From assembly GCA_052327205.1 (NCBI GenBank), contig CM126204.1:227974001-228038000 (forward strand): a stretch of 64,000 bases of DNA, in the 5' to 3' direction. This stretch comes from Somniosus microcephalus. Its lineage: Eukaryota. The notes under the pieces were generated by a model. That model searched no databases and had not been told where the DNA came from. It worked only from the letters and a program-made list of their open reading frames with translations. The translations under genes were made by a program, and so were the position numbers. Below, piece after piece: positions 19,916 through 48,800 of this stretch (its first letter is position 1; every line of letters starts with the position of its first letter).

Positions 19916-20415
19916 NNNNNNNNNNNNNNNNNNNNNNNNNNNNNNNNNNNNNNNNNNNNNNNNNNNNNNNNNNNNNNNNNNNNNNNNNNNNNNNNNNNNN
20001 NNNNNNNNNNNNNNNNNNNNNNNNNNNNNNNNNNNNNNNNNNNNNNNNNNNNNNNNNNNNNNNNNNNNNNNNNNNNNNNNNNNNNNNNNNNNNNNNNNNN
20101 NNNNNNNNNNNNNNNNNNNNNNNNNNNNNNNNNNNNNNNNNNNNNNNNNNNNNNNNNNNNNNNNNNNNNNNNNNNNNNNNNNNNNNNNNNNNNNNNNNNN
20201 NNNNNNNNNNNNNNNNNNNNNNNNNNNNNNNNNNNNNNNNNNNNNNNNNNNNNNNNNNNNNNNNNNNNNNNNNNNNNNNNNNNNNNNNNNNNNNNNNNNN
20301 NNNNNNNNNNNNNNNNNNNNNNNNNNNNNNNNNNNNNNNNNNNNNNNNNNNNNNNNNNNNNNNNNNNNNNNNNNNNNNNNNNNNNNNNNNNNNNNNNNNN
20401 NNNNNNNNNNNNNNN
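19916..20415. other. Assembly gap (500 N)
   Basis: Run of N. Confidence 1.
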
Positions 20416-20865
20416 CAGTCTCTCTCTCCCCCGCTCTCTTTCCCCCAGTCTCTCTCTCCCCCGCTCTCTTTCCCCCAGTCTCTCTCTCCCCCGCTCTCTT
20501 TCCCCCAGTCTCTCTCTCCCCCGCTCTCTTTCCCCAGTCTCTCTCTCCCCCGCTCTCTTTCCCCCAGTCTCTCTCTCCCCCACAGCCTCTCTCTCTCCCC
20601 CCCAGCCTCTCTCTCTCTCTCTCGCTTTCCCCCAGTCTCTCTCTCTCTCTCTCCCCCAGTCTCTCTCTCTCTTTCCCCCAGTCTCTCTCTCTTTCCCCCA
20701 GTCTCTCTCTCTCTTTCCCCCAGTCTCTCTCTCTCTCTTTCCCCCAGTCTCTCTCTCTCTCTTTCCCCCAGCCTCTCTCTCTCTTTCCCCCAGTCGCTCG
20801 CTCTCTCTCTTCCAACAACAACATGCCCTCAAAAAACCCTCGGCACCGCCGGGCACTTCAGCTAG
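20416..20865 (+). mobile_element. Helitron 3' end carrying a CT-rich minisatellite; 5' part lost in the gap
   Basis: Units of cagtctctctctcccccgctctctttcccc (~30 bp, then shorter variants); hairpin CTCGGC-acc-GCCGGG (20839-20853) 8 nt before CTAG (20862-20865), followed by T. Confidence 0.7.
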
Positions 20866-23533: not shown

Positions 23534-26473
23534 TCAGTATCTTTGACCTGCTGTGTGATCAGGTTGTTCAACAGTATCAGTCTTTTGACTTGCTGTGGCT
23601 GGTCCCATGAGAAGATCCCGACGATTTCTTCGCAGAACAGCACCCTCATCTGTCTGAATGGTGTATGATCTTGGTTGGACTTCACTCAGGACAGTTCCCT
23701 TCTGAGTCCATATGTTTGTTTTGTCTTTGATCCTTACTTGGTCACCAGTGTGGAGTTCAGGTAGGTTTTGTGTTCCTCTGTCATAGTCGTACTTTTGCTT
23801 TTCTTTCTGTTGTTCTTTGAACTTCCTCACTTTCTCCCCCTCTTTTGTTTTCAGGAGGTTCTCCGGGATGGGTAGGTTTGACCTTAGCAGACGTCCCATC
23901 AGGAGTTGGGCTGGTGACATACCACACTCGAGCGGCGTTGTGCGGTATACAAGCATGCTCTGGTAGAAGTCAGTTCCACTGTCTTTTGCCTTGTACATCA
24001 GTCTTTTCACTGTTTGGACCGATTTTTCCACTAGTCCATTAGACTGTGGAAAGTGAGGACTTGACGTTGTGTGGACAAAGTCCCACTCTTTGGCAAAGTG
24101 TCGGAAACTTGCATTGTAAAACTGGGGTCCGTTGTCTGTGAAGACCTCGCTTGCCACGCCATGTCTGGAGAATATGGCTTTCATACATGGTATCACAGCA
24201 TCTGCAGTGGTGGTGTACAGTCTACAAACCTCTGGATACAGGGAGTAATAGTCTGTGACTACAAGATAGTCCTTCCCTTGACATACGAATAGGTCAGCAC
24301 CTACCTTCTGGTAAGGTCTGTCTGGCGCTGGGTGTGGTTTTAGTGGTTCTACCGGATTGCTTGCTCGATATTTCAGGCATATTGTGCAGTTTGACACCTC
24401 ATTTGTCACATCTTGGTTGATTCGTGGCCAGTACATCACCTCTCGTGCTCTTTTCTTACACTTTTCGATTCCCAGATGTCCTCCAGGGATCCTTTTCAGC
24501 ATCTCTTTTCTCAGACTCTTTGGGATAACTATTTTACTTCCTTTGTAGATGATGTTTTCGACCACTGATAGTTCCGCCCTGCAGTTCCAGTACTCTGCCA
24601 TGTCAGGTGAGCAGTCTTGCTTCATGTTGGGCCATCCATCCAAGATGCTTTTCCTCAGTCGTCTCATTGTTTCATCTTTGTTTGTCTCAGTCTTTATGAG
24701 CTCCATTTTTGCATCTGCTATGGGCAGTGCACTTGTGATCATGTCCACGTAGGCGTTCATTTTTTCATCCATTTTGGTGTTTGCGGGCTCTCTTGGGTCA
24801 ACAGCTCTGGACAACGTGTCTGCTGTATACATCAGCTTACCCGGTGTGTACGCAACATTCAGTGTATAGCGTTGCAGCCTGATCATCATTCTTTGTATTC
24901 TAAGCGGACACCCATTTAGTGGCTTTTGGAACAATGCAATCAAGGGCTTATGGTCAGTCTCTACACCGATTGCTTGTCCTGACACAAACTGGTGAAATCT
25001 TTCACAGGCGTGTGTGATGCTGAGCAGCTCCTTTTCTATTTGAGCATATCGCGTCTCCGCGTCTGTCATTGAGCGCGATGCATATGCAATAGGTTGCCAG
25101 TAGTCATATTTTTGCAGAAGAACAGCACCGAGCCCACTCTGTGATGCATCTGATGATATCTTGATGGGTCTCGCTGGGTCATAAAACCTCAGAACTGGTT
25201 CCTCTGTGAGCAGTTTCTTTAGATCGCTCCATGACTTCTCATGTTCATGATTCCATTCCCATTCTATATTCTTTTCAGTTAGTCGTCTCAGTGGCGCCAT
25301 CTTTTCTGAGAGGTTGGATATGAATTTACCCATGTAGTTGATCATTCCATTAAACCTCTGCACGTCCTTTTTGCATTGTGGCTTTGGCATATTCTCAATG
25401 GCGGACACCTTTCTGGGATCTGGTCTGATGCCCTCACTGCTAAGGGTATCTCCCACGAATGTCAGTTCTGTCACCCCGAGCTGGCATTTCTCTCTATTCA
25501 GCTTCAGGTTTGTTTTCCTTGTTGCTTCCAGCACTTTCTTCAGTCTCTCGTCATGCTCAGTTCTCGTGGTTCCCCATACTATGATGTCATCCATTGATGT
25601 ATCAACTCCCTCCAGGTGCTCATAGATCATATGGATAGTTTTGTGATACACTTCAGGAGCTGAGGCAATGCCAAATGGTAACCTTAGGAATCTGTATCTG
25701 CCAAATGGACTGTTGAACGTGCACAGTCTTGAACTTGCCTCGTCCAGTTTCATCTGCCAAAATCCTGATGATGCATCTAACTTGCTGAAATACTTTGCAT
25801 TTGCAAACTGTGACATGATTTCCTCACGTGTAGGAAGCTTGAAGTGCTCTCTCTTTATTGCTCTGTTTAGATCCCTTGGATCCAGGCAAATTCTGAGCTT
25901 TCCATTCTTTTTGTCCACAACGACGAGGGAACTCACCCACTCAGTTGGCTCATCTATCTTCTGAATCACGTTCAGGCTTTCCATCCTGTCCAACTCTGCC
26001 TTCAGTTGCTTTTGAAGAGCAAACGGAACTTTTCTGCATGGATGTATGACCGTTGGCATACTTTTATCTACTCTGATCGTGTGTTCTCCTGGAAGGCAGC
26101 CTAGACCCTGAAATAGGTCGTTGTACTCTTTCATGAGTTCATCATTGACTGTCTCTCCTTCGCTTTCCACAACAAGGACTCTCTTTACCAGGTTCAGTCT
26201 CTCACAGGCTATTAAGCCTAGTATGGCCTGCACATCCTTTGGCACCACGATTAATGCTAGCATGTGCTCTCTGTCCTTGTGTGTCACTTTGACAATGCAT
26301 TTTCCTTTCACTGGTATATCAGTACCTGAGTATCCTGGCACTTTCACTTTTATTCCATGTATCTTTGGTCTGGGTCTAATTTTCTTAAAATCAGTCTCTG
26401 ATATCACATTAACTTGTGCTCCAGTATCCAATTTAAATGGAATGTGTATGTCATTCACTTTTAGTGTCAACAT
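23534..26473 (-). CDS. pol: Gypsy pol polyprotein (protease, RT, RNase H, integrase), 979 aa uninterrupted
   Basis: LDTGA, LPFG...SMDDII, DAS...YAQIEKE...TDHKPL, TDNGPQF...SNGLVE. Confidence 0.92.
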   Translation of the reverse strand: MLTLKVNDIHIPFKLDTGAQVNVISETDFKKIRPRPKIHGIKVKVPGYSGTDIPVKGKCIVKVTHKDREHMLALIVVPKDVQAILGLIACERLNLVKRVLVVESEGETVNDELMKEYNDLFQGLGCLPGEHTIRVDKSMPTVIHPCRKVPFALQKQLKAELDRMESLNVIQKIDEPTEWVSSLVVVDKKNGKLRICLDPRDLNRAIKREHFKLPTREEIMSQFANAKYFSKLDASSGFWQMKLDEASSRLCTFNSPFGRYRFLRLPFGIASAPEVYHKTIHMIYEHLEGVDTSMDDIIVWGTTRTEHDERLKKVLEATRKTNLKLNREKCQLGVTELTFVGDTLSSEGIRPDPRKVSAIENMPKPQCKKDVQRFNGMINYMGKFISNLSEKMAPLRRLTEKNIEWEWNHEHEKSWSDLKKLLTEEPVLRFYDPARPIKISSDASQSGLGAVLLQKYDYWQPIAYASRSMTDAETRYAQIEKELLSITHACERFHQFVSGQAIGVETDHKPLIALFQKPLNGCPLRIQRMMIRLQRYTLNVAYTPGKLMYTADTLSRAVDPREPANTKMDEKMNAYVDMITSALPIADAKMELIKTETNKDETMRRLRKSILDGWPNMKQDCSPDMAEYWNCRAELSVVENIIYKGSKIVIPKSLRKEMLKRIPGGHLGIEKCKKRAREVMYWPRINQDVTNEVSNCTICLKYRASNPVEPLKPHPAPDRPYQKVGADLFVCQGKDYLVVTDYYSLYPEVCRLYTTTADAVIPCMKAIFSRHGVASEVFTDNGPQFYNASFRHFAKEWDFVHTTSSPHFPQSNGLVEKSVQTVKRLMYKAKDSGTDFYQSMLVYRTTPLECGMSPAQLLMGRLLRSNLPIPENLLKTKEGEKVRKFKEQQKEKQKYDYDRGTQNLPELHTGDQVRIKDKTNIWTQKGTVLSEVQPRSYTIQTDEGAVLRRNRRDLLMGPATASQKTDTVEQPDHTAGQRY

Positions 26474-27328
26474 CCAGTCTCTTTTTTCTTTTCAGACACA
26501 ACATCCACATAGAACTCCTCTATCTCGCTTTCATCTACTGCATGGACCTTGCTTTGTTGCGCTTGGTTCTTACAGCAACGGGCATAATGGTTGTTTTTGT
26601 TGCAACTATTGCATGTTTTACCATATGCTGGACACTTTCTTGGCGGATGCTGTGCACCGCATCGACTACATGACTTTCGATTGCCCCTTTCATTTTTGTT
26701 CGCTGGCCACGCCTCTTTTTTCACATTGGCGCTTTTTGTTGAACGGTTTGTGTCCGTTCTTACTCACTGCATCCACGTTGCAGCTAGTCACTGAACAGCT
26801 CCTTTGCCTGCGACTTCACAGTCTCTGTAGCCCTACACAGTGCTATGGGCTTTTCCCAGGTCTAGATCTTGCTCTCTTAGCAGTCTTTCCCTTAGACCAT
26901 TATCTGGAATACCACACACCAGTCTGTCTTTTATCAGCGAGTCTGTCAGTCCCCCAAATTCACACGTTTTGCTTCTGTTTCTCAGTTCAGTCACATACTG
27001 ATCAATAGTCTCTCCCGTTTTCTGTACACGTGAAAAATCTGTGCCTCTCAAACGTCACGTTACGTTTAGGTATGCAGTAGGCCTCAAACTGTTCCATTAT
27101 TTTATCCAGCTTCATTTTGTCTCCATCAGCAGCGAATGTGAAGTTATTATACACCTCCAGCGCTTCATCACCCACGACATGTAATAACACTGACGCTTTC
27201 ATTTTATCACTTTTCTCGTCAGCTCCGATTGCCGCTAAATACAACTCCAAACGTTGTTTGAATCTCCTCCAATTTTCAGCCACATTACCTGTCAACTGAA
27301 GCTTCGCCGGTGGGTGTAAACCTTCCAT
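26467..27328 (-). pseudogene. gag: Gypsy gag, frameshifted
   Basis: NWRRFKQRLELY...FERHRF in three frames; zinc knuckles CSRCGAQH...C and CNSCNKNNHYARCC. Confidence 0.85.
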
Positions 27329-28107: not shown

Positions 28108-30519
28108 CTGCAACAGAGGAACAAATGTGTTTCTAATTACTGTACAAATTAACACAAAAATACAGTTATTAAAACTATAAAAAGATTTTACAAGTACAGA
28201 GCTAAAGCAGAACTCCAGCAAGTTAACTATAAAACACGCAGAACTCTGATTCATGGGCAAATACAAGGCGAAAATTCAATTTAATCTCTCTTTACGAATG
28301 TTAACTATTTCACCTCTATCATAATTTACAGAAAACACAGCATGAAAAACATGCCGAATGGGAAACAGAATCAAGTTTTAAAAATATATTTATAAAATAT
28401 TTTATATGCACACATACATAAATATAATTAATCAAATTGTCCATCAAGAACTAAAATTGAATCCAGACATTTGCAGAGTCAATTTTGTAAAATCCTGCAC
28501 ATCATCTAGCAACAGCGAAATTGAGGCCATGTGTGGGACACTGCAGTGCCGAGCACATGCAGCTGCCAAACATATTCCTCAGCTTTAAAAATCTTTGCCC
28601 TTTATACGTTCAATGTCTTTTCGCTCCAAACCACAGACATATTTTCCCAATTTCTTAAAATCAATACAATCATTGCTGTCCTATTGGTTCGTATATTGGG
28701 AGTGGAACATTTAAGAAAATATATTGTTAGTTACATCTGTGAATTCATACTGTACAGGGTTAGATGTAACCAGTCAGCAAGAAAATTTATCGGCATTTCA
28801 ACAAGTGACTGTTCTAGCCTAGACTGTAGAAACATCTTGCGCAGCCACAGCAGGTGAATTAAGATTGTTTCTAATATCCATTATTGCTAAAATGGCAGCA
28901 GTGTAAAGGTATATTCACCAAAAAATGAAAATTTGAGCAAAACATTTTTTAAGAACATGCAAGATAGAGCCTGCCATTGGTTGGTTGTATATTGTGCCTT
29001 CAGTTTAATTAATTGCACTTAATCCCAACAAAAACAAACGGGAAGAGGAAATCCATATTATGCACAACGACATGGCTAACCCTTTCGTAATTGCAGTTTT
29101 CTATTCTTTATTGCAGCCTTTTGAATATATGCTGGTCGGGCCCCTCCTTTGCCCTGTCGACACGCTTTCTCTCAGTGACATGATCTTGTAGCCTGTAACC
29201 AGGCTCCATATGCGTGCTCTAATCGCCATCACTGCCACAACTTTATTCGTACAGTTACACAACACATCTATATATATAAAGCGGCTCTCCTGTCTGTCTG
29301 TCCCGATGTCTGTCTGTCTGTCTGTCCGTGTTCTATACGTTTGAAAGTTAGAGTGTACCGACGCGCGCGTCGCCTCAAAAGAAAGCTTGCGATTCCGGAC
29401 CGGTCATAGGCGTATTTACGTTTCGGCCGCACAAAAATCCCGCCCGCGGTATCCGAAAAACGTTCAGCGTTCCGCTCATTAGCATCTCATTAGCGACCGT
29501 GTGACGTCGAGGTCGACCAATCGGACGGCGGGTTCCTGGCGCGTGCCGTCCGACAGTTGAGTGTCGAGTGACTCGACGATTGACCAATCCTAAGCTTCGG
29601 TGACCTGACCGGTCGACCAATCGGTGCGTGTGTGGGCGGGCCTTATCCTTCTGAACCGAGGTGAGTGGCCGCCATCTTGATTTTTCACGATTTTTTCCCC
29701 CACACTTTCTGTGTGTTAGGGAACTAAGGTAAATATTTGAATTATGTGTTAGGGAATTAATTAACAATTTATTTGAGTTTTATATTGTGTTTAGCAACCC
29801 CCCCCCCCCCCCCTCCTCCTCACCCTCGCGCAGGGGACACTCGGGGCTGCTTTCCAGGCCCGAAGCTTAAAAAATTTCTCTCTCTCCTTCTCCTCTTCCC
29901 TCTCTCTCTCTTTCTCCTCTTCCCTCTCTCTCCTTCTCCTCTCCCCTCTCTCTCTCTTTCTCCTCTTCCCTCTCTCTCCTTCTCCTCTTCCCTCTCTCTC
30001 TTTCTCCTCTTCCCTCTCTCTACTTCCCCCTCTCAGGTTTGTCGGGGCCGGAGCGTGGACGGGCCGGCCGAAGTGAGCCGCTCGCTAACGGCCGCCATCC
30101 CGCGGGGTTTCCCTGCCTATTCCCCGCAGGCCGCCTCGCGCCGCTGGCACTGACCGCGCATGCGGGGGGGGGGCGGGGCGGGGCTCGGCTCGGCTCGGCG
30201 GCTGGTGCTTGGAGAGCGGGGCTCTCGGCGGGGGGTGGGGGGCAGGGCTCGGAGAACGGGGCGAGGCGGCTGGTGCGGGGGAAGAGGCCCGGCGCACGCC
30301 TGACACGTAAGGAGGATCTTCGTTCACGTTGGGCGGGTTCCTCGGGTGCTGACCCCTGGCGGTGTGGGGCCGGAGCCCGGCTCTTACCTTGCCCCGGAGA
30401 GCGGGCGGATGGCGGGGCCTGGAGTAACAAATCGGCCGCAGCGGCAGCTGAGCTCCGGTGAGCGGCGGCGGGCCGCAGCGGCAGCTGAGCTCGGGTAAGT
30501 CGGGCCGGACCAAAGGCGA

Positions 30520-31990
30520 GGGGGGGAGGGAAGAGAGGGTGGGTGGGGGGGGGGAGGGAAGAGAGGGTGGGTCGGGGGGGGAGGGAAGAGAGGGTGGGGA
30601 GGGGAGGGAAGAGAGGGTGGGTCGGGGGGGGGAGGGAAGGAAGAGAGAGTGGGGGGAGGGAAGAGCGAGTGGGGGGAGGGAAGAGCGAGAGAGAGGGTGG
30701 GGGGGGAGGGAAGAGAGAGAGGGGTGGGGGGGGAGGGAAGAGAGAGAGAGGGTGGGAGGGGGGAGGGAAGAGAGAGAGGGTGGGGGGGAGGGAAGGAGAG
30801 AGAGGGTGGGGGGAGGGGAGGAGAGACTGGGGGAGGAGAGAGACGGGGGAGAGAGAGAGAGAGATGGGAGAAGGGAGAGAGAGACTGGGGAGAGAGAGAG
30901 ACTGGGAGATCGAGAGAGAGGAGCGACGGGAGCGCGACCGGGGGGGGGAGCGAGGGAGCGCGACCGGGGGGGGAGGGAGCGAGGGAGCTGCGACCGGGGG
31001 GGGGAGCGAGGGAGCGCGACCGGGGGGGGGGAGCGAGGGAGCGCGACCGGGGGGGGGGAGCGAGGGAGCGCGACCGGGGGGGGGAGCGAGGGAGCGCGAC
31101 CGGGGGGGGGGAGCGAGGGAGCGCGACCGGGGGGGGGAGCGAGGGGAGCGCGACCGGGGGGGGGAGCGCAGGGAGCGCGACCGGGGGGGGAGCGAGACGA
31201 CGAGGGAGCAGCGACCGGGGGGGGAGCGAGGGAGACGCGAGCGCGACCGGTGGGGGAGCGAGGGAGCGCGACCGGGGGGGGAGCGAGGGAGCGCGACCGG
31301 GGGGGGAGCGAGGGAGAGCGCGACCGGGGGGGGGAGCGAGGGAGCGCGACCGGGGGGGGGAGCGAGGGAGCGCGACCGGGTGGGGGAGCGAGGGAGCGCG
31401 ACCGGGGGGGGGAGCGAGGGAGGGGAGCAGGGAGCGCGACCGGGGGGGGAGCGAGGGAGCGCGACCGGGGGGGGAGCGAGGGAGCGCGACCGGGGGGGAA
31501 GAGAGAGCGCGACCGGGGGGAAGAGAGCGCGCGACCGGGGGGAAGAGAGAGCGCGACCGGGGGGAAGAGAGAGCGCGACCGGGGGGAAGAGAGAGCGCGA
31601 CCGGGGGGAAGAGAGAGCGCGACCGGGGGGGAGAGAGAGCGCGACCGGGGGGAGAGAGAGCGCGACCGGGGGGAAGAGAGAGCGCGACTGGGGGGAAGAG
31701 AGAGCGCGACTGGGGGGAGGGGAGGGCGCGACTGGGGGGAGGGAGGGAAGGGAGGGCGGGGAAGGGAGGGCGGGGAAGGGAGGGCGGGGGAGGGGAGGGC
31801 GGGAGGGGGGAGGGCGGGAGGGGAGGGCGGGGGGGGGGAGGGCGGGGGGGGGAGGGCGGGGGGGGGAGGGCGGGGGGGGAGGCGGGGGGGGGAGGGAGGG
31901 GGAGGAGGAGAGGGAAGAAGGGGCAGGGGGAGGGAGGGGAGGAGGGGAAGGGAGGAGGGCAGGAGGAGAGAGGAGAGGGGAAGGGGGAGA
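30520..31990 (+). repeat. G-rich minisatellite block
   Basis: Successive units GGGAAGAGAGGGTGGGG, GAGCGAGGGAGCGCGACCG(n) (~25 bp), GAAGAGAGAGCGCGACCG(n) (~23 bp), GGAGGGCG(n). Confidence 0.95.
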
Positions 31991-32240
31991 GTCCACGAGC
32001 CCCCTGATCCCCGTCCCCCCAAACTCCCGAGCCCCCTGATCCCCACCCCCCGAACTCCAGAGGTTGGCCCCCCGAGACTCGCACCCCCACCCCCACCCCC
32101 GAGGCTCGCCCACCACCCACCCCCACCCCCGAGGCTCGCCCACCACCCAACCACCCCCGAAGCTCGCCCCCCCCACCAACCAAGCACCGAACTCCGGAGG
32201 CGCGATCTTCCGAGCACCGGCCTCCTGAGCTGGCTTCAAC

Positions 32241-32538
32241 ATTGCGGCTGTGCGAGACGGCCGGAGGGCCCGGTTGCCAGGGTAACCGTGACGCTGACCA
32301 AGCCCCGCCCCCCGGCCGAGCCAGAGAGACGCCGCGTCTCAGCTGCTCTGCTGCTGCGCGCGGCCTCCCCCCCGGGGGTCGCGGCCCCCCCCCCTCCCCC
32401 CGAGGTGAAGACCGCCGATTGCGGCTGTGCGAGACGGACCGGCGGGCCCGGTTGCCAGGGTAACGCTTGACGCTCAGCAAGCCCCGCCCCCCGGCCGAGC
32501 CAGAGAGAGACGCCGCGTCTCAGCTCCTGCTGCGCGCG
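32241..32538. promoter_or_regulatory. Two ~120-bp direct repeats, each with an RFX X-box, TGACG half-site and GC box
   Basis: GTTGCCAGGGTAAC at 32273-32286 and 32451-32464, each followed by TGACG and CCCCGCCCC. Confidence 0.6.
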
Positions 32539-33384
32539 CACCCTAGCGGCGCTGGGCTGAGGCTCGGCCCTCCAGCCTTCGAGTGGGGCCGGGAGGTGCC
32601 TAGCTCGGGCGTGGGTGCGGAGGAGACGCCGAGGCTTCTAGGCTACCTGGAAAAACGGGGAAAGGTAGGAAAATTAATGAGATTAGATAAGTTAATTACT
32701 TTCTAAATCATTTTTTTTAAAACAATATGTGTTTTAAAAGCAACGTTTTTTTTTAAGACGCGGAAAGCGGGAAAAAGGAAAAGTTTGGAATCAAGATGGC
32801 GGCGACTCACCTCGGTTCAGAACGATAAGGCCCGGCCACACACGCACCGATTGGCCCGGCGGCACACGCCAGCAACCCGGCTTACAATTGGTCGAGCTCG
32901 AGGTCACTCTGTCGCGAATGAGCGGATAATGAGATGCTAATGAGGCGGAATGTTGAAGTCTTTTGGGATACCGCAGGCGCGATTTTAGCCCGGCTGAAAC
33001 GTAAATACGCTTAAAACCGTCTCGGAAGCGTAAGCTTTCTTTGGAGGTAACGCGCGCGTAGGTACGCCCTGTAACTTTCGAGCGCATACCCGACAGACGC
33101 ACACGCGATGACAGACAGACAGACAGAATGACAGAAAGAAGTACCGATTTATATATATAGAGAGAGATAGAGATAGAGAAGATATAGATAGATAACCAAA
33201 CTAACTGGTGCTCAGTAAAACTGCCATCGATTCTATTTGGAGCCCTTGAAAATAATTTTTTTTGCTTATTTCCATCGATAAACTAGGCTATTTTTCTAGG
33301 TTGGTGGATCCCAAGGTGCTCGAACACTAATTCTGACAGCATCATACCTGATGAGGTCACTAGTGCAATATGTAGCTGCCGCCA

Positions 33385-33880
33385 CCTGCCTTTAACGTAG
33401 TAAAATATCCCAAGGTGCTTCACAGGAGCGTTATCAAACAAAATTTGGCACCAAGCCACGTAAAGAAATATTAGAACAGATGATCAAAAGCTTGGTCCGA
33501 GAGGTAGGTTTTAAAGGATCGTCTTAAAAGGAGAGAAAGAGATAGAGAGGCAGAGAGGTTTAGGGAGGGAATTGCAGAGTTTAAGGCCATGGCAGCTGAA
33601 GGCACAGCCACCAATGAGGGGGTGATGGAAATCGGGGGGATACGCATGAGGCCAGAATTAGAGGAGCACAGATATCTCGGTGGGTTGTAAGGATGGAGGA
33701 GGTTACAGAGAAAGAGGGAAGGATGAGGTCATGGAGGAATTTGAAAACAAGGACAAAATTTTTTTAAATCGAGGCGTTGCTGGACTGGAAACCTATGTAG
33801 ATCAGCAAGCACAAGAGTGACAGGTGAACGGGACTTTGTGCAAGTTCAGATAGGATGCGGGCAACAGAGGTTTGATAAGC
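33385..33880 (-). mobile_element. L2 LINE 3' fragment
   Basis: Homologous to 37290-37760 (cccaaggtgcttcacaggag, aaaagcttggtc). Confidence 0.8.
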
Positions 33881-33914
33881 TCAAACAGTGAAAGGAAATA
33901 GAGAGCAGTGAAGA

Positions 33915-34970
33915 ACAGTTGTTCATCGGACTGGAGGAAAGAACACATTGGAGTTTCCTAGTGGTCAGTACTAGGACCACTGCTTTTCTTGATATATATT
34001 AATGACTTAGACTTGTGTATAGGGCACAATTTCAAAATTTGCAGGTGACACAAAACTTGAAAGTATCGTGAACAGTGAGGAGGATAGTGATAGACATCAA
34101 GAAGACAAAGACAAAGGTGGAATGGACGGACACATGGCAGATGAAATTTAATGCAGAAAAGTGCAAAGTGATACATTTTGGTAGGAAGAACGAGGAGAGG
34201 CAATATAAACTAAAGGGTACTATCCTAAAGGAGGTGCATGAACAGAGAGACCTGGGGGTATATGTGCACAAATCGTTGAAGGTGGCAGGGCAGGTTGAGA
34301 AAGCGGTTAAAAAGGCTTACGGGATCCTGGGCTTCATAAATAGAGGCAGAATACAAAAGCAAGGTAGTTATCATGAACAATTATAAAACACTGGTTCAGC
34401 CTCAACTGGAGTATTGTGTCCAATTCTGGGCACTGCATTTTAGGAAGGATGTGAAGGCCTTAGAGAGGGTGCAGAAAAGATTTACAAGAATGGTTCCAGG
34501 GATGAGGGACTTCAGTTACGTGGATAGACTGGAGAAGCTGGGGTTGTTCTCCTTAGAGCAGAGAAGGTTGAGAGGAGATTTGATAGCGGTGTTCAAAATC
34601 ATGAGGGGTCGAGACAGAGTAGATGGAGAGACACTGTTCCCATTGGCAGAAGGGTCGAGAACCAGAGGACACATATTTAAGGTGATTGGCAGAAGAACCA
34701 AAGGAGACATGAGGAAAAACTTTTTTTTTTTTTTTTTTTTAAAACGCAGCGAGTGGTTAGGATCAGGAATACACTGCCTGAAAGGGTGGTGGAGGCAGAT
34801 TCAATCGTGGCTTTCAAAAGGGAATTTGAAAAGTACCTGAAGGCGAAATATTTGCAGGGCTATGGAGAAAGGACGGGGCAGTGGGACTAGCTGAAGTGCT
34901 CTTGCAGAGAGCCAGCACAGGCTTGACGGGCCAAATGGCCTTCTTCTGTGCTGTAACCACTCCATGATTC
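33915..34970 (+). mobile_element. CR1 3' fragment
   Basis: [27 protein letters not shown]; tail ccttcttctgtgctgtaaccactccatgattct. Confidence 0.9.
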
Positions 34971-45815: not shown

Positions 45816-48800
45816 GGCATCAGCAGCGGGTGGAGGCGGCGCAGCGCGGCAGAGCGACTACAAGAGGCCCCAGAGGCTCAGGTAGGCCTCCGTGCGGCAT
45901 CGGCAGCGGGTGGAGGCGGAGCAGCGCGGCAGAGCGACTACAAGAGGCCCCAGAGGCTCAGGTAGGCCTCACCAATCTCCAATCTCAGGCAAGGAGAGAG
46001 GTCAAAAGTATTCAAGGTGTGACGTCACCACAAAACAGGTAGGTGATTGGTTGGAGTATTTCTCTCGTTTTAAAACTTTAAGTCTGTGGTTTATAGTTTT
46101 TAAGGTTGCTGTGGTGTACCAAGGCCTTTCTGGTGCAGAGTGACTGTTGGTAAACCATTTAACTGGTGTAACTAGAGGGATTGATTTAATTTAAATCCAA
46201 TTAATTAAAGGGGATACTAGCATCTAAAATCGGGCAGAGGGTGTCCATAACTAACAATAAAAAATTAAATTAGTTAAATAGAATGGAGCAGGTGATGTGT
46301 TACTGTTGCGAGATGTGGGAGCCGGTGAACTCCATTGAGGCTCACGGTGATTACGTCTGTGACAAGTGTCTGCTGCTACAGGAACTCCAGCTCCGTGTTG
46401 ATGAGCTGGAGTCTGAGCTTCAGACACTGCGACACATCAGGGAGGGGGAGAAGTACCTGGACTCTGTGTATCAGGAGGTGGTCAAACCTATGAAGTTAAT
46501 TAATTCAGATGTAGCCCATGGTCAGGGACAGGACGGTGTGACTACGAGTGAGGCAGGTACGGGGATCCAGGAGGTAGAGCTGGAGGAGCCGCAGCCCTTG
46601 CTCTTGACCAACAGGTTCGAGGTTCTTACTCCCTGTGGGGACAGGAGCAGGGACTGCAGGGAGGATGAGCAACCTGGCCACAGCACCGTGGAACAGGGGG
46701 CCATTCAAGAGGGGGGAGTAAATAGAAATGTTGTAGTGGTAGGGGATAGTATTATTAGGGGGATAGATAGAGTTCTCTGCAGCCGAGAGCGAGAGTCCCG
46801 AAGGTTCTGTTGCCTACCCGGTGCCAGGGTTAAGGACATCTCCTCTGGGCTGGAAAGAAACTTGCAGTGGGAGGGGGTGGATCCAGTTGTCGTGGTCCAT
46901 GTTGGTACAAACGACGTAGATAGGACTAGGAAGCCGGTTCTGTTAAAGGAGTATGAGCAGCTAGGGGTCAAATTAAAAAACAGAACCACAAGGGTAATAA
47001 TCTCTGGATTATTACCTGAGCCACAAGCGAATTTGGCTAGGACAAATAAAATTAGAGAGTTAAATGCGTGGCTCAAAGACTGGTGTGGGAGAAATGGGTT
47101 TTGCTTCCTGGGACACTGGCACCAGTACTGGGGCAGGAGGGAGCTGTTCCGTTGGGACGGGCTTCACTTGGCCAGTGCTGGGACTAGAGTCCTGGCGGAT
47201 TATATAACTAGGGCTGTAGAGAGGGCTTTAAACTAACTAGTGGGGGGGAGGTTCCTAGAGAGCAAATAATAAATGACAACAGAGAAGGTCATAGACTTAG
47301 GTAGCAGTGGGGAAATTAAAAAACCAGAGTGTGTCAGGAAGGGACAGAAGGTATGGAGTAAAAGGTAAAGTAATAAAAAGGGCAAAAGCAGGAACTAAGT
47401 GTCACAAAACATATTTGAAAGTTCTCTATCTGAATGCACATAGCATTCGTAACAAAATAGACGAGTTAATGGCACAAATAACTACATATGGGTATGATCT
47501 TGTGGCCATTACAGAAACATGGCTGCAGGGTGACAATGCCTGGGAATTAAACATACCAGGTTATTTAACGATCAGGAAGGACAGGCAGGAAGGAAGGGGA
47601 GGTGGGGTGGCTATGTTAATAAAGGAATCACTGTAATACAGAGAAATGATATTGGGTCAAAAGATCAGGATAATGAAACAGTTTGGGTGGAGGTAAGGAA
47701 TAATAAGGGGAAAAAAACACTAGTGGGCGTAGTCTATAGGCCTCCGAACAGTGGCAACTCTGTTGGACGGAGTATCAATCAGGAAATAGTTGAGGCTTGT
47801 AATAAGGGAACATCTAGAATTATGGGGGATTTTAACTATCATATTAATTGGACAAATCAAATTGGGCAGGGCTGCCTTGAGGATGAGTTCATTGAGTGTA
47901 TGAGGGATGGGTTTCTTGAGCAGTATGTAACTGAACCGACCAGGGGGCAAGCAACCTTAGATCTGGTCCTGTGTAACGAGACAGGATTAATTAAAAATGT
48001 CCTAGTAAAGGATCCCCTTGGAATGAGTGACCATAACATGGTTGAATTCCATATTCAATTAGAGGGCGAGAAGGTTGAATCTCAAACAAGCGTGCTAAGC
48101 TTGAATAAAGGAGACTATGAAGGTATGAGAGCGGAATTGAGTAGAGTGGATTGGGAAAATAGATTAAAGGGTAAGACGATACATGATCAGTGGTGTACAT
48201 TTAAGGAGTTATTTTACAACTTCCAAAAAGTATATATTCCACTGAGAAGAAAAGGGTGTAAAAGAAAAGACAGCCATCCGTGGCTAAGTAAAGAAATTAA
48301 TGATAGTATTCGACTAAAAACAAGGGCATATAAGGTAGCCAAATCTAGTGGGAGGATAGAGGATTGGGAAAACTTTAAAAGACAGCAAAAAATAACAAAA
48401 AGATTGATTAAGAAAGGGAAGATAGATTATGAAAGTAAATTAGCAAAAAATATAAAAACAGATAGTAAGAGTTTTTACAGTTATATAAAAAGAAAAAGGG
48501 TGGCTAAAGTAAATGTTGGTCCCTTAGAGGATGAGACCGGGAAATTAATGGTGGGAAATATGGAGATGGCAAAAACACTGAATGAATATTTTGTATCAGT
48601 CTTTACAGTAGAAGACACTAAGAATATCCCAACACTGGACAGAGGGCTATAGGGGGGGAGGAGCTAAACACGATCAAAATCACTAAGGAAGTGGTACTCG
48701 GTAAAATAATGGGACTCAAGGCGGATAAATCACCTGGACCTGATGGCTTACATCCTAGGGTCTTGAGGGAAGTGGCGGTAGGGATTGTGGATGCATTGGT

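Follow-up and report, generated by a model that had tools for sequence, protein, structure and literature searches.

A 64,000-nt window of the Somniosus microcephalus genome (GenBank assembly GCA_052327205.1, contig CM126204.1, positions 227,974,001 to 228,038,000 of the forward strand) contains two related sequences, arm A on the plus strand and arm B on the minus strand, that face each other across a repetitive interior (table 1). A first-pass annotation described these arms as inward-firing promoters, each with its own first intron, forming a convergent transcription unit. All the motifs that it named are present at the positions it gave. The arms reach further out than the feature it delimited, to 29267 on one side and 33161/33192 on the other. 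Both open with A/TCTATATATATAAA followed by a GTCT microsatellite (+29267 and -33161), a Helitron 5' end that had not been recognized, and in arm B a TC/TA run up to 33192 precedes this start. The arms are 75% alike over 306 alignment columns (29267-29548 / 33161-32860) and 95% alike over a 66-nt core (29617-29682 / 32854-32789). The window has exactly two instances of the succession CCAAT box, donor, and YY1-type site, whereas 100 shuffled sequences gave 0.00. As shown below, the two arms are the 5' ends of two separate non-autonomous Helitron1 copies and not the two ends of one element.

Genome searches returned 2292 candidate copies of arm A and 3019 of arm B. The 39 best other matches are 96-98% and 95-97% alike, respectively, one of those to arm A being a second copy inside L038 that was not counted separately. 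A 30-mer common to both arms and spanning the donor and the YY1-type site has 8,430 exact copies in the 6.4-Gb genome. After removal of L118, a duplicate of L050, we examined 77 other family copies with downstream sequence. Within 5.4 kb, the next terminus is a sense hairpin-CTAG 3' end in 55 copies, a sense head in three, an antisense 3' end in one, and an inverted head in one; 17 copies have none, and several of these run into assembly gaps or long arrays. The sole inverted head is reached across an assembly gap. Median element length is ~1.6 kb for subfamily A and ~1.4 kb for subfamily B. The base preceding the head is an A in 65 of the 77 copies, the CTAG of a tandem neighbor in four, and G or T in three, with five unparsed. 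Tails end in CTAG/T in 89 of 91 cases, with a hairpin 12-13 nt before the end that folds in all four tails tried. Head-to-tail tandems are common in the family and, for the 100 copies that head the C1 listing, neighbors less than 10 kb apart have the same orientation in 14 of 14 cases.

These ends are shared by autonomous partners, RepHel-coding elements with Rep and a PIF1 helicase. According to the excerpted text of PMC11417382, HLE1 elements begin with TC, carry a hairpin and then CTRR at the 3' end, and insert between an A and a T; the family fits this definition of Helitron1. No complete element is present at the locus, where neither a family tail nor a CTAGT on either strand is found in 29267-33200. 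We considered and rejected a terminal inverted repeat (TIR) element or miniature inverted-repeat transposable element with promoters in its arms: the arms travel separately, only the single copy mentioned above meets an inverted head, and the join between them is unique. The proposed convergent unit is not supported, the arms being heads of two separate subfamilies whose copies almost invariably stand singly or in head-to-tail order.

We then asked what the conserved cassette of the heads represents. Among 407 RepHel candidates in the genome, 150 were scored and ten loci were taken for their long open reading frames (ORFs). A related sense head lies upstream of the ORF at six of these loci, with GAG/GTGAGT and a GCCAT site in four of the six, and the family hairpin-CTAG/T end is present at eight of the ten. 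At six of the ten, an acceptor-like CATAACAG or TTTTTCATAACAG stands one base before the RepHel ATG (xATG), after a long pyrimidine tract. The element L072_L071, with a head 89% like arm A, encodes Helitron_like_N (PF14214) and PIF1 (PF05970) domains. The head of L074_L073 is 93-94% like arm B and its tail is of identical type, a retroelement being inserted behind the head. L089_L090 has neither the donor nor an AG before the ATG. Many RepHel copies retain long open frames, the one in L072_L071 reaching ~1,490 codons when counted from its ATG, which points to recent Helitron activity.

Thirteen diverged heads share an invariant CTCATTA and CCAAT, the retained unit being CTCATTA, twice per head. 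The distance from the last CCAAT to the donor is 44-45 nt in nine of the 13, and CCAAT boxes are spaced by 32-33 nt in eight (window 29584-29621, L072, L083, L053, L056, L063, L114, and L116), a spacing that we take to match that of NF-Y-driven cell-cycle promoters. The sequence first read as an octamer variant, ATTAGCAT, is indeed present in both arms but absent from most other subfamilies, and its interpretation as an octamer is doubtful. On the opposite strand, the doubled CTCATTA (29475-29495 read on the minus strand, 32925-32945 on the plus strand) reads TAATGAGATGCTAATGAG, which contains a TAATGARAT-type POU/homeodomain site.

From its position and conservation, the cassette is likely the promoter of the RepHel transposase plus the donor that opens the first intron of a spliced 5' untranslated region. 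Because RepHel-coding Helitrons carry the same cassette before their ORF, each arm is likely an inward-firing RNA polymerase II promoter cassette with a first donor. The original description of the arms as promoters with a first intron is thus retained as likely for cassette and donor, but not as a convergent transcription unit. In the autonomous parent, transcription directed by the CCAAT boxes, a GC box, and the YY1-type site would begin shortly before GAG/GTGAGT, and splicing would join this first donor to the acceptor that precedes the RepHel ATG. Derivatives made non-autonomous by deletion would retain the cassette because it adjoins the 5' end needed by Rep, and purifying selection in active parents could account for the motif conservation between subfamilies.

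The motifs had been reported to be among the best-conserved parts of the arms, and this is borne out by the comparison of the two arms: all 38 motif columns agree, versus 197 of 240 other columns (Fisher p=0.0014). This conservation would be explained by the transposase promoter role, without function at this locus. Within the subfamilies, the motifs are not preferentially conserved among copies, an outcome that the first-pass annotation had named among those that would count against its reading. In a low-power comparison of the 20 best-scoring copies of each subfamily, non-CpG mismatches number 1/800 in motifs versus 22/4220 elsewhere for A (p=0.16) and 3/700 versus 18/3756 for B (p=1.0). CpG columns mutate ~7 times faster than others among copies, as in methylated DNA, and those outside the motifs carry 3.0-3.7% mismatches.

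Table 1. Features of the two arms and of the sequence between them, in window coordinates (a slash within a motif marks a splice or insertion junction)
Feature	Position	Strand	Remarks
5' end (left terminal sequence), subfamily A	29267..29682	+	A/TCTATATATATAAAG, GTCT microsatellite, doubled CTCATTA, CCAAT boxes, GC box, donor, YY1-type site
ATTAGCAT (first-pass octamer variant)	29478; 32941	+; -	Site search
Cyclic AMP response element (CRE)-like TGACGTC in subfamily A head	29502	+	
CCAAT boxes, arm A	29517, 29584, 29617	+	Site search
CCAAT boxes, arm B	32891, 32854	-	Site search
First donor GAG/GTGAGT	GT at 29661; 32810	+; -	Site search
CCGCCATCTTG, YY1-type site	29669 (29669-29679); 32802	+; -	Site search
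Subfamily A interior	29683..30262	+	AT-rich intron-like part, CT-rich 22-mer array 29878-30034, CAG ending 30036, GC-rich part
Acceptor-like CAG	ending 30036	+	Arm A side
Fragment common to L113	30331..30445	-	Antisense to A head; contains donor AAG/GTAAGA
Second donor AAG/GTAAGA	30387	-	
Doubled 37-nt GC-rich module ending GG/GTAAGT	30434..30518	+	Period 37, 2.1 copies
Second donor GG/GTAAGT	30495	+	
GA-rich minisatellite, A side (Helitron pyrimidine tract reversed)	30519..30920	+	Continues as in relative L093
Join of A and B tracts (approximate)	30921..30943		Exact breakpoint inferred
3' pyrimidine minisatellite of B and C-rich tract	30920..31990	-	22-mer and locally expanded 26-mer
Subfamily B interior	31991..32788	-	Short intron-like part (CTAAT, tract, CAG), then GC-rich part
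CTAAT, tract, and CAG	CTAAT 32686; CAG ending 32647	-	Arm B side
5' end, subfamily B	32789..33192	-	Family start TCTATATATATAAAT at 33161; TC/TA run to 33192 (A/TC)

L031, L037, L040, and L048 match the arm A element up to 30255-30262, and the module at 30275-30515 is found in other copies at 95-99%. The doubled 37-mer is also present within another subfamily (L051 2339-2422, 92%), and local alignment to L093 runs through the GAGATGGG...GAGACTGGGG block to ~30920. On the other side, L053, L058, L060, and L067 match the B element from 33161 down to 31079-31675. The 26-mer unit has 12 exact copies, at this locus only in the genome, and its array grades into the B-type 22-mer. The B interior also contains an internal duplication of 121 nt (32241-32361 / 32418-32539).

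The minus-strand second donor lies in a fragment 85% like L113 (G000:C1 ~111,721,900-111,722,250), a single-copy, CpG-rich locus with a strong donor and no Helitron head. Only L113 covers positions 1-381 of the query, the other 39 of the 40 scored matches ending at a sharp boundary, at or before 249. Hundreds of Helitrons carry a copy of the first part of L113 (614 candidates in the genome); in L114-L117, as in the window, the L113-like piece is antisense to the Helitron head. The fragment is likely a captured host first exon with the start of its intron, and L113 the 5' end of a host gene. A 5' bias of gene capture is described for Xenopus Helitrons (excerpt of PMC12001565).

The 23-mer across the join occurs once in the genome, and both outer flanks are single copy. 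A reversed A-side tract stands where the terminal tail and CTAG of B should follow. Reversed tracts are found inside four of 38 A copies, and also in L093 and L096; an A copy facing a B copy would therefore present direct repeats, its reversed pyrimidine tract repeating that of B on the plus strand, and annealing between them would delete both tails. We read the locus as two facing 5' ends of young non-autonomous Helitron1 copies, A and B, with no 3' end between them, each bearing a cassette that is likely the RepHel promoter and 5' untranslated donor, and likely brought together by a one-off deletion through the minisatellite that they have in common (probability about 0.78). Within this reading we lean, by a modest degree, toward separate insertion of A and B at A/T sites in opposite orientation, tract annealing having then removed both 3' ends and the intervening DNA. 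By arithmetic from the copy counts, chance alone would give about 27 inward pairs less than 10 kb apart. Rather than a dedicated two-way transcription unit, the locus is most likely commonplace transposon debris; it is probably without selected function and silent or weakly read through.

Several observations weigh against this interpretation. No transcript start or splice has been seen for the cassette in any copy, its promoter role resting on position and conservation. Four of the ten RepHel loci have no related sense head within 10 kb, and in L072 an assembly gap separates head and ORF. RNA reads of the family run in both orientations (2876 and 6328 aligned in the two runs described below). 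Two further convergent head pairs exist (L148 and L101), both across 500-N gaps. The join itself is known from the assembly sequence alone, and we found no empty site or undeleted ortholog that would distinguish two insertions and a deletion from a template switch.

Of the alternatives, an assembly misjoin is unlikely. It would have merged two contigs whose ends lay in homologous GA-rich tracts of Helitrons, in which case the heads would not be neighbors in the animal. The assembly often breaks in such tracts, as attested by the 500-N gaps in many copies, the array at 31.1-31.5 kb is ragged, and both the join and the 26-mer unit are found nowhere else in the genome. At L101 (1-4633), 1.3 kb is mirrored at 97% across a 500-N gap, the cause being a palindromic duplication or an artefact of scaffolding. 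Conversely, there is no N in 28500-34000, the gradation of the 26-mer into the B-type 22-mer is as expected of local expansion, and two DNA runs show the right flank to be single copy, although no listed contig crosses the join.

We regard as improbable the single insertion of a chimeric two-headed molecule that arose when rolling-circle copying switched templates within the minisatellite. Modules are shuffled or inverted in many copies (L093, L096, L031, and L114), and close neighbors are nearly all same-strand tandems. The two flanks of such an insertion would meet as A/T, but this follows automatically from two normal A/TC junctions. Moreover, Helitron1 ends are made at the CTAG after the hairpin (excerpt of PMC4778049), none of which is present here, and the genome contains no second copy of a two-headed unit. 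A read-through unit ending at a cryptic hairpin-CTAG/T at +33363 (fold -5.3 kcal) was rejected as an amplified unit, its flank being single copy.

RNA evidence came from two raw runs of one study, of unspecified tissue and strandedness, of which 24% and 31% were read; alignment was at 90% likeness, and a first exon of ~20 nt could be missed. On 32545-33900, the reads are deepest over the donor core and mostly 90-95% alike, only 125/2876 and 118/6328 reaching at least 99% likeness. The unique flank at 33189-33372 has no RNA read, yet it is covered by the two DNA runs. On 30005-30518, to which 128 and 35 reads aligned, depth does not exceed 1 near the 30036 acceptor and is 0 over 30437-30518, and no joint or loose end is listed at the predicted sites (eight loose ends fell outside the listing). 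The 32646^32811 junction is not among the joints listed for the two runs, with 130 joints and 1106 loose ends outside the listing. Taken together, these weak data neither support nor refute a convergent unit.

In a working convergent unit, the two spliced transcripts would overlap and yield double-stranded RNA or small RNAs, which might act in trans to silence the Helitron family. Both cassettes are near-intact, departing from the commonest letter of the family in only 2/341 and 8/297 columns. The CpG observed/expected ratio is 0.7-1.4 over most of the element, but high CpG is common to young copies and the rapid mutation of CpG columns is that of methylated DNA. AATAAA or ATTAAA is absent from the plus strand of the element and occurs once on the minus strand, so that the transcripts could overlap if both promoters fire. 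Nevertheless, given the one-off arrangement, motifs not preferentially retained among copies, the RNA depths above, and the unlisted joints, such a unit is a very improbable explanation of the locus.

The family copies resemble HLE1 elements in their 5' TC, 3' hairpin with CTRR, A/T insertion, and ends common to RepHel elements (excerpt of PMC11417382), and Xenopus Helitrons in their head-to-tail tandems and minisatellite interiors (excerpt of PMC12001565). The window locus differs in having two 5' ends and no 3' end, and is therefore what remains of a rearrangement, without a complete element. Minisatellite interiors are also found in the Helentron/HINE/DINE-1 (HLE2) group. DINE-1 elements have a GTCT microsatellite near their 5' end, as do the window arms. 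Assignment to this group was rejected: HLE2 elements have short TIRs and a TT insertion (excerpt of PMC11417382), in contrast to the A/TC ... hairpin-CTAG/T ends of the window family.

In maize, the TIRs of MuDR carry inward-facing promoters, and a rearranged derivative, Mu killer, could give double-stranded RNA that silences the family. MuDR has near-identical TIRs at the ends of one cut-and-paste element and generates a target duplication, whereas the window arms are 75% alike and come from two distinct rolling-circle copies. No silencing RNA was observed at the window locus, and the resemblance is a possibility only. That a rearranged two-headed Helitron, with two intact transposase promoters firing inward in the germline, makes double-stranded RNA against a young family of more than 8,000 promoter-bearing copies, and so constitutes a natural silencer of vertebrate Helitrons derived from their own promoter, is very doubtful.

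A close parallel for the cassette is HelibatN3 of Myotis bats, a non-autonomous Helitron that has spread a promoter and a splice donor, a potential exon trap, to thousands of sites (excerpt of PMC4778049). According to the same excerpt, its promoter was captured from the host gene NUBPL and its activity was demonstrated. The window cassette is likely the element's own. If active, it could likewise seed promoters and exon traps genome-wide. At the family level, the genome harbors a young radiation of Helitron1 in which RepHel ORFs are long and the CCAAT/GC-box/donor/YY1 cassette, likely the native promoter of the transposase, has no fewer than 8,430 copies. We found no description of this Helitron family, or of a native vertebrate Helitron promoter, in the open-access literature, a search that lay outside Repbase and Dfam, and one may exist elsewhere.

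Other observations concern the origin of the copies. Non-autonomous copies end in a 3' tail, AACAACATGCCCTCGAAAAAG or, for some of them, AACAGCATGCCCTC, that is similar to the acceptor and start of RepHel, AACAGCATGCCCTCAAGAAAA, as seen by comparing L058:2340-2387 (oriented), L051, and L038 with the RepHel start in L072_L071:8332-8380. This likeness suggests that a deletion beginning immediately past the ATG and extending to the terminator gave rise to the non-autonomous copies. Both the tail and the acceptor/start versions are present in some of the RepHel-coding elements. Just before the RepHel acceptor, an inverted relic of a 5' end (the reverse of TATATATATAAAT...GTCTGTCTGT) is present in L072_L071:8300-8335, L076_L075:8015-8060, and L080_L079 (oriented), and inverted heads inside elements may be old in the family. 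Heads also stand back-to-back, within 20-40 nt of each other, near the sampled head in L098, L100, L122, L138, and L148. These divergent pairs apparently arose when one copy inserted into the TA run of a second copy's head, and they would form outward-firing promoter pairs.

Four long or overlapping frames scanned in 29871-33282 match no Pfam family, 28500-34000 has no Rfam match to a structured RNA gene, and a plasmid collection gave no match, which is uninformative. Elsewhere in the window, a 500-N gap at 19916-20865 is followed by a CT tract and the family hairpin-CTAG/T, another Helitron 3' end 8 kb upstream. A 985-codon frame at 23534-26491 on the minus strand has the protease, reverse transcriptase, RNase H, and integrase domains of a long terminal repeat retroelement pol. 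On the plus strand, the frame at 46274-47236 encodes a GDSL/SGNH esterase domain and has frames like those of long interspersed nuclear elements (LINEs) downstream; it is likely ORF1 of a CR1/L2-type LINE.

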